The notes beneath the pieces were generated by a model. That model saw only the letters and a list, made by a program, of their open reading frames with translations, was not told where the DNA came from and did not search any database. From positions 13,220 through 77,219 of IMG/VR virus record IMGVR_UViG_3300032219_001391: a stretch of DNA of 64,000 bases; one strand, written 5' to 3'. This document shows positions 1,766 to 60,348 of the stretch, piece by piece. The DNA is from a virus. Taxonomy: Duplodnaviria; Caudoviricetes. The position numbers and the translations under genes are program-made. Within the stretch, counting starts at the first letter, position 1. Each line of letters starts with the position of its first letter.

Positions 1766-4615
1766 ATGAATGAAATAAAAATCAATCAACCGCTTGAAAT
1801 TAGAGCACTTGATGTCCTTGATAATTATTCAGGGGCAAACAACTATATTATTAAATTAAAAATCAAAAAAGATACTAATAAGAAGTTCTATCCCACAAGG
1901 AATCAAGCAGAATATATCTTAGCATATAAAGACACTACACCTAAGATTGCAAGAAAATGGGTTAATCTTGATTTATATTTTGCTAACAAACTTGCGGATG
2001 AAAAATTATTAACGGAAGTTCCAACAAAAATATGGGTTGAGAAGTTATTAGTGGAAAAAGATACATCTTATCACATTTGGGGTAAATTTAATGAACACGA
2101 GGAGTTATATGATTTTTGGGTACCAAAATCAGGAATTATTAAAGACAACTCCATTAAAGTTAGTATTGATTATGAAAAGTATTCTCATAGACCCCCATTG
2201 TCTCACCAAATAGAAGGTATTGAAAAATTAGTTGGGAATAAGAAATATATTCTAGCAGATGATATGGGATTGGGTAAAACAACTCAAACAATCATTGCCG
2301 CTTTGGAAACGGGTGTTGATAAGATTTTAATCATTAGTCCTGCATCATTAAAGATTAACTGGCAACGTGAAATTGAAAATTATACGGATCGTTCAGTTGC
2401 TATCATTGATGGTAAAAAATGGGAATCCGCAGATTTCGTTATTGTAAATTACGACATCTTAAAGAATTTTCACGATCCAAAAAATAGAGAAAATAGTCAG
2501 ATATTAAATGAAGGTTTTGGTTTGGTTGTTTTAGATGAATGTTTTACATACGATACTAAAATTATCACTGAATTTGGTGAAAAAAATATTGGAGATATTG
2601 TAGAGAATGGGTTAGATGTTAAAATTTTAACATTTAATCACAAAAATAATATTTTTGAATATAAAAAAATAAATAGATGGATTAGAAAAAATAAAGACAC
2701 TATATACAAAATAAAACTCAACAACGGACTATTTATAGAGTGTACTGATAATCATAAGTTCTATGTAAATAATAAAGGATATGTTAGAGCAAAAGACCTT
2801 ACATCAACCGACGACTTGTATATGTTGTCAAAAACCACTTTCAAAGAAACAAATTTGGAAGAAGGGAAAATGTTGTTCAAAGAGTTGTTCATCAATAATA
2901 AGGAACAAAATGTCACCACAAAAACCAAAGGAATTAAAATTTCACAAAAATTGTCCGGAATGTGGAAATATAATGAGTTTCACAACAGAAACAAAAATGA
3001 AAAAGAAAACATATTGTTCTGTGACATGTTCGAACAAAGTAAAATCAAACAACGTGGAAGTAAAAGAAAAGAGAAAAAAAACAATAGAAAAAAATGGTGG
3101 GTGGTCAAAAATAATGATAAATACACATATGAAAAATCCTCATATGGCAAAACTATCTTCTCAAAGGATGAAAAAAAACAATCCAATGAAAAATTTGGAG
3201 AGTTTAGAAAAAATGAAACAAAAATTAAAAGGGAGAACTTTTTTGTCGAGGGGTGGGAATGGCAAAATAACACCTCAACAAGAAATGTTATTTCAGATGT
3301 TAGGGGAAGGTTGGGTGTTGGAATTACCAATTTTAACAGAAAACGTAAAACCTTTATTCAAAAGTTTACCACCTTCTTACAAAGTGGATATAGGGAATCC
3401 AAATTTGAAAATATCAATAGAAGTAGATGGGAAGTCTCACAAAACAAAAAAATGGAAATACTTGGACAGACGAAAGACAAAGGTATTGAATTCGTTAGGG
3501 TGGAAAGTATTGAGATTTTGGAACGAGGAAGTTATGATAAATCCACAAATGTGTATTCAAAAAATACAAGAGTTTATGATTTAGAAATTGAGGATAATCA
3601 TAACTATTTTGCTAACAATATCTTAGTAAGTAATTGTCATTATATTCAAAACACACAAGCACAGAGAACAAAACTAATCAATGATTTTGTTAAAAAAATT
3701 GATAGATTATGGTTATTGACAGGTACACCAATCACATCAAGACCAATCAATTATTATAACTTATTGAATTTAATTGATTCCCCCGTTGCTATGAATTGGA
3801 TGGCGTATGTTATCAGATATTGTGAAGGGTATCAATTCAGTGTTGGTAAAAGAAAAGTATGGAATGTTAGTGGTGCATCAAATCTTGAAGAACTTCGTGA
3901 TAGAACATCTCGTCAAGTATTAAGACGTTTGAAAACCGATGTATTGGATCTACCCGAAAAAATCATAACACCAGTCTATCTTAAATTAAAATCTTATGAA
4001 TACGAGAGATTGATGGGCGAATATTATGATTGGTACGATAAATCTGAGGAATCAACATCATTGACCGTTCAATTTACCAAACTAATGAAAGTTAGACAGG
4101 TAATTTCAGAAGAGAAAGTTAAATCAACTATTGAGTTATGTGAGAATATTATTGAACAAGGTAAGAAGGTTATTGTATTTACCAATTTTACCAACTCGTT
4201 AAATACTATCTTATCACATTTCGGAAAAAAAGCCGTTGGTCTTGATGGTAGTATGCCACAAGGAATGAGACAAGATAATGTTGATAAATTCCAAAATGAT
4301 GAAAGTATTATGGTATTTGTTGGGAATATCAAAGCGGCAGGTGTTGGTATTACCTTAACATCCGCCGAGGTTGTAGTTATGAACGACTTATCATTTGTTC
4401 CATCAGACCATTCACAAGCGGAAGATCGTGCATATAGATACGGACAAAAGAATAACGTTTTGGTGTATTACCCTATTTTTGATAATACAATTGAGGGTGT
4501 TATATACAATATTCTACAGAAAAAGAAAAACATATTTGAAACCGTTATGGGTGATAATCTAAGTAAGGGTGATATTGTTGAGGAGATTATGAACCTAATC
4601 AACACTAAAAGATAA
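1766..4615 (+). CDS. SNF2-family (DExH) helicase precursor containing an intein
   Basis: Motif I ILADDMGLGKT, motif II split as VVLDE/CH by the intein, LLTGTP, HelicC motifs AAGVGITLT and QAEDRAYRYGQ; ATG 1766 preferred over TTG 1736. Confidence 0.92.
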   Translation: MNEIKINQPLEIRALDVLDNYSGANNYIIKLKIKKDTNKKFYPTRNQAEYILAYKDTTPKIARKWVNLDLYFANKLADEKLLTEVPTKIWVEKLLVEKDTSYHIWGKFNEHEELYDFWVPKSGIIKDNSIKVSIDYEKYSHRPPLSHQIEGIEKLVGNKKYILADDMGLGKTTQTIIAALETGVDKILIISPASLKINWQREIENYTDRSVAIIDGKKWESADFVIVNYDILKNFHDPKNRENSQILNEGFGLVVLDECFTYDTKIITEFGEKNIGDIVENGLDVKILTFNHKNNIFEYKKINRWIRKNKDTIYKIKLNNGLFIECTDNHKFYVNNKGYVRAKDLTSTDDLYMLSKTTFKETNLEEGKMLFKELFINNKEQNVTTKTKGIKISQKLSGMWKYNEFHNRNKNEKENILFCDMFEQSKIKQRGSKRKEKKNNRKKWWVVKNNDKYTYEKSSYGKTIFSKDEKKQSNEKFGEFRKNETKIKRENFFVEGWEWQNNTSTRNVISDVRGRLGVGITNFNRKRKTFIQKFTTFLQSGYRESKFENINRSRWEVSQNKKMEILGQTKDKGIEFVRVESIEILERGSYDKSTNVYSKNTRVYDLEIEDNHNYFANNILVSNCHYIQNTQAQRTKLINDFVKKIDRLWLLTGTPITSRPINYYNLLNLIDSPVAMNWMAYVIRYCEGYQFSVGKRKVWNVSGASNLEELRDRTSRQVLRRLKTDVLDLPEKIITPVYLKLKSYEYERLMGEYYDWYDKSEESTSLTVQFTKLMKVRQVISEEKVKSTIELCENIIEQGKKVIVFTNFTNSLNTILSHFGKKAVGLDGSMPQGMRQDNVDKFQNDESIMVFVGNIKAAGVGITLTSAEVVVMNDLSFVPSDHSQAEDRAYRYGQKNNVLVYYPIFDNTIEGVIYNILQKKKNIFETVMGDNLSKGDIVEEIMNLINTKR
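2540..3634 (+). mobile_element. intein (365 aa) inserted in the helicase DExH box
   Basis: Starts CFTYDTKI (block A), has IECTDNHKF (block B TxxH), ends VYDLEIEDNHNYFANNILVSN followed by Cys+1; excision restores VVLDE-CHYIQN. Confidence 0.95.
2781..3584 (+). CDS. DUF559/Vsr-like (EDxHD-type) homing endonuclease with two Zn-binding modules, in the +1 frame inside the intein
   Basis: CxxC...CSxxC twice, basic NUMOD3-like linker, then YKVD...IEVDGKSH...D and LGWKVLRFWN; ATG 2781 to TAG 3582-3584. Confidence 0.88.
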   Translation: MLEQKTLHQPTTCICCQKPLSKKQIWKKGKCCSKSCSSIIRNKMSPQKPKELKFHKNCPECGNIMSFTTETKMKKKTYCSVTCSNKVKSNNVEVKEKRKKTIEKNGGWSKIMINTHMKNPHMAKLSSQRMKKNNPMKNLESLEKMKQKLKGRTFLSRGGNGKITPQQEMLFQMLGEGWVLELPILTENVKPLFKSLPPSYKVDIGNPNLKISIEVDGKSHKTKKWKYLDRRKTKVLNSLGWKVLRFWNEEVMINPQMCIQKIQEFMI

Positions 4616-4634
4616 TGATATATTTATCATTATG
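4613..4634 (+). promoter_or_regulatory. 22-nt palindromic intergenic element containing TATTTAT (copy 1)
   Basis: TAATGATA-TATT-TATCATTA-TG runs from the helicase stop to the SOD start; identical to the reverse complement of 11419-11440. Confidence 0.7.
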
Positions 4635-5309
4635 AAACAATTAGAAAGAAAGATAGAATTACTTGAAACGATATTGGAAGGTAAAAACATTTTTGAGGCA
4701 AATTACAAAGCACAAAAATTGGATTATAACCCTAACTCTTTATCCGACTTCATAGACAAGGAAACTATGGATGTCCATTATAATGGACATTACAAAACGT
4801 ACATCAAAAAATTAAATGATCTTCTACCTGATGATCAAACAATTCCAATTGAGGTTTTAATTAAAAAAATATCAAGGTATAACAGAAAGGTGAGAAATAA
4901 TGCCGGTGGTGTTTATAATCATCAACTTTTTTGGAAAATGTTATCACCAAATAAGACAAAACCATCAGAGGAGTTGTTAGATAAAATCATTAAAGATTTT
5001 GGTTCCTACGATGATTTTAGAAAAAAGTTTGAGAGGGTTGCACAAGATAAATTTGGTTCAGGATGGGTTTGGTTGGTTGTTGGAAGTAATGGAAAACTTC
5101 GTGTTACCTCAACATCAAATCAAGATAACCCTGAGATGAATAATATTAGAGGTGGAGGAAAAGTTTTATTGGGGCTTGACATTTGGGAACATGCGTATTA
5201 TCTTAGCTACCGAAATAAGAGAGACCAATACATCAAGAACTTTTGGAAGGTTGTAAATTGGGATTTCGTAAATTCAGAATATCAGAAACTTAAACCAAAT
5301 AAAAAATGA
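4632..5309 (+). CDS. sodA: Fe/Mn superoxide dismutase (Mn-type signature) with N-terminal extension
   Basis: VHYNGHYKTY, NNAGGVYNHQLFW, FGSGWVWL, NQDNP, LDIWEHAYY: all four metal ligands present; GG and NQD point to Mn type. Confidence 0.95.
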   Translation: MKQLERKIELLETILEGKNIFEANYKAQKLDYNPNSLSDFIDKETMDVHYNGHYKTYIKKLNDLLPDDQTIPIEVLIKKISRYNRKVRNNAGGVYNHQLFWKMLSPNKTKPSEELLDKIIKDFGSYDDFRKKFERVAQDKFGSGWVWLVVGSNGKLRVTSTSNQDNPEMNNIRGGGKVLLGLDIWEHAYYLSYRNKRDQYIKNFWKVVNWDFVNSEYQKLKPNKK

Positions 5310-13101: not shown

Positions 13102-13731
13102 TTATCTTTTTACCTTACAAACCCAAACAACCTTATCAAAGGTTTCTTTTTTATAACTTATTAAATTATTTTTAATACAAGCGTTCTCAATATCAGAATC
13201 AGATATTTCATACCAATTCCATAATTTCATATAAACATCTCGTTCAAAAGTTTCCCTATCCTGAGAATAATCATGTGCCATAATATAATCACCAGTTTTT
13301 AGATAGTTTGATAATAGATTAAATTCATGTATTTTACTACCCCCATCACAAAGAATTAAAGTAACTCCGTCTTGTTGGATGAAGTCAATAACTTCCTGTT
13401 TAACCTCTGAATAATCGTAATTAAAAACATTCTCAACTCTAACATCAATACCTTCTGAAATCATATCTTTATACCAACTATGTTCGTTAATATCATAAGA
13501 CAAAATATGACAATCAATTGATATTTTTTTACAGGTATAATTCAAAAATGATGTGAAGCCCCCGATTGAGGTACCTATTTCCAATATTCTACTTGGTTTT
13601 ATATCATTCAAAAAATAGTGGAAGGTCTCAAAAACATTTGGGTTTTGTTGAGCACCCCATCCATCATACGTGGATATACTATCATTATGTTCTAAATTTG
13701 ATTTTTTGTAAACTTTATCTTCGTAATTCAT
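13102..13731 (-). CDS. class I SAM-dependent methyltransferase
   Basis: ILEIGTSIGG motif I; ILCDGG and AHDY motifs. Confidence 0.75.
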   Translation of the reverse strand: MNYEDKVYKKSNLEHNDSISTYDGWGAQQNPNVFETFHYFLNDIKPSRILEIGTSIGGFTSFLNYTCKKISIDCHILSYDINEHSWYKDMISEGIDVRVENVFNYDYSEVKQEVIDFIQQDGVTLILCDGGSKIHEFNLLSNYLKTGDYIMAHDYSQDRETFERDVYMKLWNWYEISDSDIENACIKNNLISYKKETFDKVVWVCKVKR

Positions 13732-60156: not shown

Positions 60157-60348
60157 ATGTTAATAGTTGAAGTAAAAGATCAAAAGAATTTGGATAAAGC
60201 ATTAAAGTTGTTGAAGTCCAAAATTATTAAGACTAAACAAATGGATGCTCTGTATAACAGGAGAGAATATAAAAAGAAATCTGTTTTACGTAGAGAAACT
60301 TTACTAAATGCCACTTACAAACAGAGAAAAAAAGATAACGAAAATTAA
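60157..60348 (+). CDS. rpsU: ribosomal protein bS21 (Bacteroidota type)
   Basis: MLIVEVKD..NLDKALK..KSK..KT.....L..R..Y.K.S..RR......Y54 aligns without gaps to Flavobacterium bS21 as recalled (MLIIPIKDGENIDRALKRYKRK...KPSVVKR...AAY). Confidence 0.88.
   Translation: MLIVEVKDQKNLDKALKLLKSKIIKTKQMDALYNRREYKKKSVLRRETLLNATYKQRKKDNEN

Follow-up and report, generated by a model that had tools for sequence, protein, structure and literature searches.

The stretch of viral DNA considered here, 64,000 nucleotides (nt) from positions 13,220 to 77,219 of the IMG/VR record IMGVR_UViG_3300032219_001391 (Duplodnaviria; Caudoviricetes) and referred to below as the window, contains a helicase gene interrupted by an intein whose putative homing endonuclease is encoded by a separate gene, read from the same DNA in the +1 frame. 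We estimate at roughly 85% the probability that this is a homing intein with its two functions carried in two frames, and that it belongs to a wide family confined to the Walker B motif of P-loop NTPases. The feature itself is real and selected, and it is very probably a working homing intein.

An intein and a nuclease in two frames of one gene

The helicase frame is uninterrupted from its ATG at 1766 to 4615, a single open reading frame (ORF) for a precursor of 950 amino acids (aa) with Pfam matches to SNF2 (2e-21) and Helicase_C (2e-20). An earlier note on this DNA, made from its letters alone, had placed a complete intein in the DE|CH box of the helicase, and this placement is borne out (Table 1). 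Cys1 stands at 2540, block B reads TDNH (residues 69–72, 2744–2755), block F reads VYDLEI (residue 345, from 3572), and the terminal Ser-Asn (3629–3634) is followed by Cys+1. The residues expected of a class-1 intein (C1, T69–H72, N365 and Cys+1) are all present, and the match to Intein_splicing PF14890, at 58.5 bits against a cutoff of 35.8, places a HINT splicing domain in the host frame. With the mini allele described below as query, the nearest match among inteins of solved structure was the Spl DnaX mini-intein 7CFV (5.5e-10). By these features the 365-aa insert is confirmed as a class-1 intein, and its residues predict that it splices. A single-sequence fold of the intein frame was uninformative (pLDDT, a predicted score on the local distance difference test, 32), the splicing domain included, and we therefore do not take it as evidence of disorder.

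In the +1 frame the same note had read a 267-aa protein with two zinc modules and an E-D-x-H-D/DUF559 catalytic domain. The ORF indeed matches DUF559 (2.6e-14) and MTES_1575 (3.7e-10) in Pfam, carries the Cys motifs of both modules, and also has the structural counterpart that had been sought. Its AlphaFold model (mean pLDDT 90) shows two zinc modules followed by a helical linker and, C-terminally, a further domain, and VIA-align superposes the catalytic domain on 3hrl (DUF559; Z 12.1), on the catalytic domain of I-Bth0305I (3r3p; Z 10.8, root-mean-square deviation 2.4, 88 aa) and on Vsr (1cw0; Z 9.9). Foldseek returned no match to the model at E < 0.001, its best-ranked entries being 3hrl, 3r3p and 1vsr, while a sequence profile was closer to DUF559 3HRL (1.8e-13) than to 3R3P, a weak match (E 0.0025). 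The residues E181, D203, D216, H220 and D229 are unchanged across 48 homologues and map to I-Bth0305I E170, D196, N208, H213 and D222, a mapping made from motif spacing and partly from alignment, with the residue roles taken from PMC3239194.

The zinc modules, whose residue C83 is nearly invariant among homologues, gave weak matches to MYM, FCS, YacG and L24e zinc fingers (E 0.04–0.5). The linker had been described as NUMOD3-like, a label we do not retain: Pfam gave no NUMOD match for it, nor any LAGLIDADG match in the nuclease. The N-terminal zinc/linker part matches the HNH-endonuclease PHROG phrog_1271 (2.7e-7) and so appears to be a module common to other homing enzymes. By fold and catalytic residues, we predict that the protein is an EDxHD-type homing endonuclease.

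Table 1. Positions of the intein, the host helicase and the overlapping nuclease gene in the window.
Feature	Position	Strand	Remarks
N-extein, SNF2-family helicase	1766..2539	+	motif I DDMGLGKT; ends at Walker B ...VLDE
Class-1 intein, 365 aa, helicase frame, at DE|CH	2540..3634	+	Pfam PF14890 9e-16
C-extein	3635..4615	+	Cys+1, His, then SNF2 motifs III-VI
TATTTAT, candidate phage promoter motif, in intein codons 64-66	2730..2736	+	44 nt before nuclease ATG
Nuclease gene, +1 frame, 267 aa	2781..3584	+	ATG in block-B Tyr-Val codons; TAG stop in block F
Two CxxC...CxxxC zinc-binding modules, presumed DNA-binding	2817..3029	+	C13/C16/C32/C36; C58/C61/C79/C83
Helical linker of nuclease	3030..3254	+	conserved RMxxNNPM and RGGNG motifs
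Vsr-like/DUF559 catalytic domain	3255..3581	+	E181, D203, D216, H220, D229
Dual-coded segment	3494..3584	+	nuclease GWxVLRFxN and final helix over intein RVxSxEI and block F start

Selection on the two frames

Two open frames over such a length had been called improbable without selection, and resampling agrees. When the codons for the +1 protein were redrawn from genome usage, its amino-acid sequence kept unchanged, the host frame acquired 26.9 stops on average across the nuclease (minimum 12) and no trial in 20,000 was stop-free, whereas the actual sequence has none. The reverse simulation, in which the host protein was fixed, gave a mean of 9.3 stops in the +1 frame and again 0/20,000 stop-free trials. 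The third forward frame has 34 stops and the antisense frames 20, 11 and 4; an antisense ORF at 2980–3330 had no Pfam match and was judged a shadow. A host-frame stop arises when a T in the last position of a +1 codon is followed by AA, AG or GA. Such T-ending codons number 1,288/2,002 (64%) in the ordinary genes of the window, 0/46 in its nuclease and 0/8,172 in the family described below, the zero being a consequence of both frames staying open.

Conservation by codon position, which the earlier note had proposed as a check, separates the two frames: the +1 frame is selected in the middle and the host frame in the splicing domains. The ratio of nonsynonymous to synonymous substitution rates (dN/dS), pooled from pairwise estimates against 17 relatives at the same site that are themselves interrelated, so that the pattern counts for more than the decimals, stands, for the host frame, at 0.24 over the N-terminal splicing domain and at 1.1–1.5 across the middle. 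For the +1 frame it is 1.57 over the N-terminal splicing domain, then 0.28 in the zinc modules, 0.23 in the linker and 0.15 in the catalytic domain.

Both frames are under constraint where the nuclease ends. There the nuclease motif GWxVLRFxN and the host motif RVxSxEI are read from identical nucleotides, and both readings are kept in 161 family members. Constraint acts in both frames on the final 29 codons of the nuclease (amino-acid identity 0.73 in the +1 and 0.69 in the host frame), and silent rates are depressed in both frames of the dual-coded segment. Two earlier descriptions of the central host frame consequently need trimming at the same end. It is motif-less for the most part, as claimed, except that its last ~30 codons encode the conserved strand RVESxEI along with the beginning of block F; and it is a disposable linker over host residues ~95–315, where dN/dS is high and a natural deletion exists (L004/L005, below), but not over those last, doubly constrained codons. 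The +1 nuclease gene is confirmed as real and maintained by selection, and the intein middle is shown to be a by-product of the +1 frame, selected only to stay stop-free.

A family confined to Walker B

Viral, metagenome and genome collections were searched at the DNA level without regard to frame, at most 80 matches being listed per search, and nuclease relatives turned up at no fewer than 225 loci (individual loci are cited by L numbers). The intein C-end lies one frame back, with that frame open, in 181 of the 225 listed loci; the frame is open in 31 more, and no intact in-frame fusion of intein and nuclease occurs among the 225. The +1 layout is found in at least 172 distinct inteins, every host frame being open, and the catalytic pattern is present in 162/170 family members; the layout is thus commoner than the earlier note had allowed for. 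Stops in the +1 frame of homologous inteins were also sought; instead, both frames stay open down to about 30–50% nuclease identity.

The insertion site is as constant as the layout. Of these inteins, 138 stand directly after the DE of Walker B and 32 two to three residues later (two were unplaced), and the +1 residue is Cys or Ser in all 172. Walker-B insertion holds over 46 extein clusters (40% identity). Hosts comprise SNF2 and other superfamily 2 (SF2) helicases, UvrD, DnaX-type clamp loaders and methylase–helicase fusions, both in phages and on bacterial contigs; some family members occupy the Walker B DE|CH of DnaX, where the cyanobacterial DnaX intein also sits. The cultured Vibrio phages CP-T1 and 1.088.O, the latter a Nahant phage of Vibrio lentus, have the same layout with the nuclease unannotated, as it is in the Nahant Vibrio phages.

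Members at shifted sites fall into subgroups two or three codons along Walker B, at DExH|C (L183, L186, L189, L256, L259, L261, L263, L270) or DExHR|C (L120, L122, L129), many of them in Anaerolineae methylase–helicase genes. The helicase of L002/L003 (host ORF 873–4838 in L002) has a second intein, which interrupts motif I (GK|T) and bears an in-frame LAGLIDADG-like motif, so that canonical-looking and +1-frame elements stand together in one gene. Pairs of close inteins in very distant exteins were absent at the thresholds used, and jumps between host-gene families would therefore be old or rare. The distances of splicing domains and of nucleases are only moderately correlated (rho 0.45).

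Alleles and signs of homing

Full, mini (L004/L005) and empty (L006–L011) alleles occur among exteins that are 92–98% identical, the closest empty alleles, without intein, having exteins 92–96% identical. In a quick extein tree, well-supported branches force at least five intein gains or losses, and in L001 the intein DNA is 94% identical while the N-extein is only 70% so. The mini-intein is the product of a 552-nt in-frame deletion (2933–3484 of the window) between near-identical 10-nt words, in exteins 97–98% identical to the window. Compared with the window, L004/L005 show 0 mismatches in the 120 nt on either side of the intein and 3–5% beyond; these perfect flanks look like a co-conversion tract. 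The patchy distribution, the mismatch between intein and extein identity and the three kinds of allele all support homing, at the level of sequence comparison. Among the matches listed, intein-free orthologues found by C-extein similarity are joined exactly at the insertion site, and the closest read DEAH in 79/79 cases. As Ala cannot serve at +1, invasion of DEAH alleles must bring a Cys codon with it.

The same observations bear on whether the nuclease is a homing enzyme at all. It may be a real, selected nuclease with another role here, for example as a nickase or mismatch nuclease for phage–phage competition or repair, the intein serving as a safe haven. Its closest structure, 3hrl, is that of a stand-alone DUF559 protein, Vsr is a repair nickase, and about six free-standing nuclease relatives exist in bacterial genomes (L257 2988–3700, L264, L268, L269, L283 and L287). 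We nevertheless regard this as improbable, given the strict coupling of the nuclease to one insertion motif over all 46 extein clusters, the horizontal-transfer and co-conversion signs at the intein, and the loss of the nuclease by deletion in a near-identical phage, a step expected of a homing cycle. Even the free-standing L257 keeps a decayed intein C-end in an overlapping frame, a relic by which its nuclease would have come out of an intein and which suggests escape from it.

Expression of the nuclease

The motif TATTTAT, found within the intein upstream of the nuclease (Table 1), lies 11–60 nt before 18 of the 72 gene starts of the contig, mostly those of structural genes (shuffles 3.4, maximum 9). 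The third positions of intein codons 62–66 are near-invariant in 15 relatives, a silent-site constancy that holds though residue 64 may be Leu, Val or Glu. The motif is present in 17/23 nuclease-bearing relatives listed and is destroyed in the nuclease-deleted allele L004, which has two substitutions there (2728 and 2730). TATTTAT is probably a phage promoter element, and likely a late-promoter element, one whose reverse complement makes up most of the T4 late box. A sigma-70 promoter scan gave no score above shuffles, and no RNA structure was detected over the nuclease start (z +0.64). An ATG-TAA minigene in the +1 frame (2763–2768 of the window), 18 nt before the nuclease start, is not kept in relatives.

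Recoding would offer a different route to the nuclease: a ribosomal +1 shift, or polymerase slippage at an A8 run (MKKNNP codons near 3168–3176), would yield an N-extein–intein–nuclease fusion. The lack of a clear Shine-Dalgarno sequence before the nuclease fits such a route, as do L086 (helicase, ~900–915) and L090 (clamp loader, ~1010–1020), two unrelated loci that have each independently dropped a base from the A-run, with the result that the catalytic domain continues the reading frame of the intein N-part. In both, however, the host gene is broken by the loss, and the loci have the look of homopolymer errors or of dead alleles; the fusions might otherwise be on the way to a split intein. 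Slippage at the A8 run was rejected, the run being broken in many intact relatives (L015, L093–L096, L101, L170). Purifying selection on the +1 frame is also evident well upstream of the run, in the zinc modules, the Tyr-Val codons that contain the ATG are conserved (Y81 is TAT in 15/15), and a Shine-Dalgarno-like word precedes the +1 ATG in 73/162 family members. In view of these points we consider recoding very unlikely.

The chance is practically negligible that the arrangement arose in assembly, or through two recent frameshifts in an intein nuclease that was once in frame: the source record is a metagenome assembly, but the same frame relation in at least 172 distinct inteins, including those of the cultured CP-T1 and 1.088.O, excludes an assembly error and rules out an indel that joined the frames, the host frame is open throughout, unlike the outcome of such an error, and an intact in-frame version is absent from the 225 listed loci.

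A proposed homing cycle

A homing intein with its functions in two frames may operate as follows. The helicase frame would be translated into the 950-aa precursor, from which the class-1 intein, by means of Cys1, the block-B His, the terminal Asn and Cys+1, would splice out and restore the DECH box. The +1 gene would supply a separate zinc-finger and Vsr-fold EDxHD nuclease, probably from an internal phage transcript starting at TATTTAT, with initiation at ATG 2781. In a mixed infection this nuclease would cut or nick the intein-free Walker-B sequence, and recombinational repair would copy the intein plus some flanking DNA into the recipient. To judge from the distribution of alleles, repair of a DEAH recipient would also have to import the Cys+1 codon needed for splicing.

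Several observations weigh against this account. Firstly, the penultimate intein residue is Ser instead of His, as it is in 81/172 family members. Secondly, the nuclease ATG has no properly spaced Shine-Dalgarno sequence, as is the case for most genes here. Thirdly, TATTTAT is missing in the nuclease-bearing L002, L095, L103, L104, L105 and L172, and it also arises in 10/25 (40%) ordinary [LVI]-F-[IM] codon runs. Lastly, a targeted search found two empty alleles that read DECH, L382 2233–2256 and L404 4241–4264 (minus strand). Both read VILDE-CH, including the upstream Leu that intein-bearing alleles typically have, and may possibly represent either a preferred homing target or precise intein loss. 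Import of the Cys codon is therefore not the sole reading, and the idea that Cys+1 always arrives by co-conversion is weakened.

We see a slightly better than even chance that a +1 gene over an intein is the fixed design of a large undescribed family, founded on one Vsr/EDxHD lineage, and not a rare accident. This design would be locked in place by the last strand of the nuclease, which shares nucleotides with a splicing-domain strand, and its promoter would be hidden in the splicing domain. It would have specialised on DNA that encodes Walker B in P-loop NTPases unrelated to one another (SNF2, other SF2, UvrD, DnaX), and homing would be able to rewrite DEAH to DECH, thereby providing its own +1 nucleophile.

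Comparison with known systems

The earlier note had pointed to a possible precedent in actinobacteriophages, and one does exist, in actinophage and in cyanobacterial DnaX inteins with out-of-frame nucleases. For the latter, an out-of-frame nuclease is credited to Gorbalenya 1998, as cited in bioRxiv 10.64898/2026.09.14.751524, in which Phillips, DeSimone and Gogarten describe a shifted LAGLIDADG and call it a rarity. The likeness to the helicase intein is considerable: a contiguous intein, a same-strand shifted ORF (there '+2 ORF'), frame-swapped dN/dS, and full, mini and empty alleles. The cyanobacterial mini-intein 7CFV is moreover the closest solved relative of the helicase-intein splicing domain. 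The nucleases differ, that of the helicase intein being of the Vsr/EDxHD type with two zinc modules and not LAGLIDADG, and so does their spread, the DnaX type being found in one host gene of one phylum whereas the +1-Vsr family has many P-loop NTPase hosts in phages and bacteria.

Among non-canonical inteins of actinobacteriophages, Gosselin, Arsenault and Gogarten (bioRxiv 10.1101/2025.01.02.630785) reported LAGLIDADG and VSR-like genes in antisense orientation and endonuclease VII genes in frame 3. As in the window, a full intein is combined with a nuclease in a separate ORF, and their VSR-like nucleases were matched to 3R3P. Those nucleases are antisense, however, while that of the helicase intein is on the same strand at +1; the same-strand case among theirs is the endonuclease VII in frame 3. 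Their hosts are DNA polymerase, minor capsid, terminase and thymidylate synthase genes, in contrast to the helicase Walker B here. The helicase intein has the properties by which a non-canonical intein is recognised, namely an unbroken intein frame and a nuclease ORF in another frame under purifying selection of its own.

Other systems share parts of the arrangement. I-Bth0305I (PMC3239194) is an intron-encoded EDxHD homing endonuclease with NUMOD2/helix-turn-helix repeats; it resembles the helicase-intein nuclease in its C-terminal Vsr-fold domain, its five catalytic positions and its N-terminal DNA-binding modules (presumed here), and differs from it in that ours has zinc modules and is intein-borne. 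The fractured genes of Dassa 2009 (PMC2677866) have Vsr-like genes between split intein halves. The 3' end of the nuclease overlaps the intein C-part by 6–69 bp in those genes, and such an overlap is likewise present here; in contrast to them, our intein is unbroken within a single helicase ORF and its nuclease has N-terminal zinc modules. Lastly, the ShiLan out-of-frame HNH insertion in phage methylases (PMC11855218) also hides a zinc-finger nuclease in another frame of an open host frame, but is HNH, in frame 3 and without an intein splicing domain.

In the literature within our reach, most subscription papers lying beyond it, we found no description of a Vsr-like gene that overlaps an unbroken intein in the +1 frame of the same strand, nor of the Walker-B restriction and breadth of the +1-Vsr family. 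The general concept is thus known, while the combination of nuclease, frame and site and the size of the family appear unpublished. Layouts of this kind have been viewed as extremely rare intermediates bound to decay, split or shift into frame. With at least 172 examples and no intact in-frame form, the model by which inteins gain nucleases becomes testable, and the cultured family members permit direct tests. Gene callers miss the nuclease, so that many inteins whose middle has been put down as decayed or of unknown nature may be homing actively. The family also constitutes a naturally occurring set of gene overlaps, ~800 nt long and with one segment that functions in both frames, as well as a pool of nucleases predicted to be aimed at Walker-B sequences.

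Genome context

The contig is a 77-kb fragment (CheckV 26% complete) with portal, major head and neck genes, and the helicase intein is its only intein of the +1-Vsr family. A bS21 gene (window 60157–60348, +; Pfam 2.4e-9) lies antisense within the head module, as in freshwater phages for which Bacteroidetes hosts have been predicted (PMC9723584). On this ground a phage of Bacteroidota is a reasonable inference, as is the 'Bacteroidota jumbo phage' of the earlier note. Directly 3' of the helicase lies a gene for an Fe/Mn superoxide dismutase (window 4632–5309, +), preceded by TATTTAT; a superoxide dismutase likewise follows the helicase in L087–L089.

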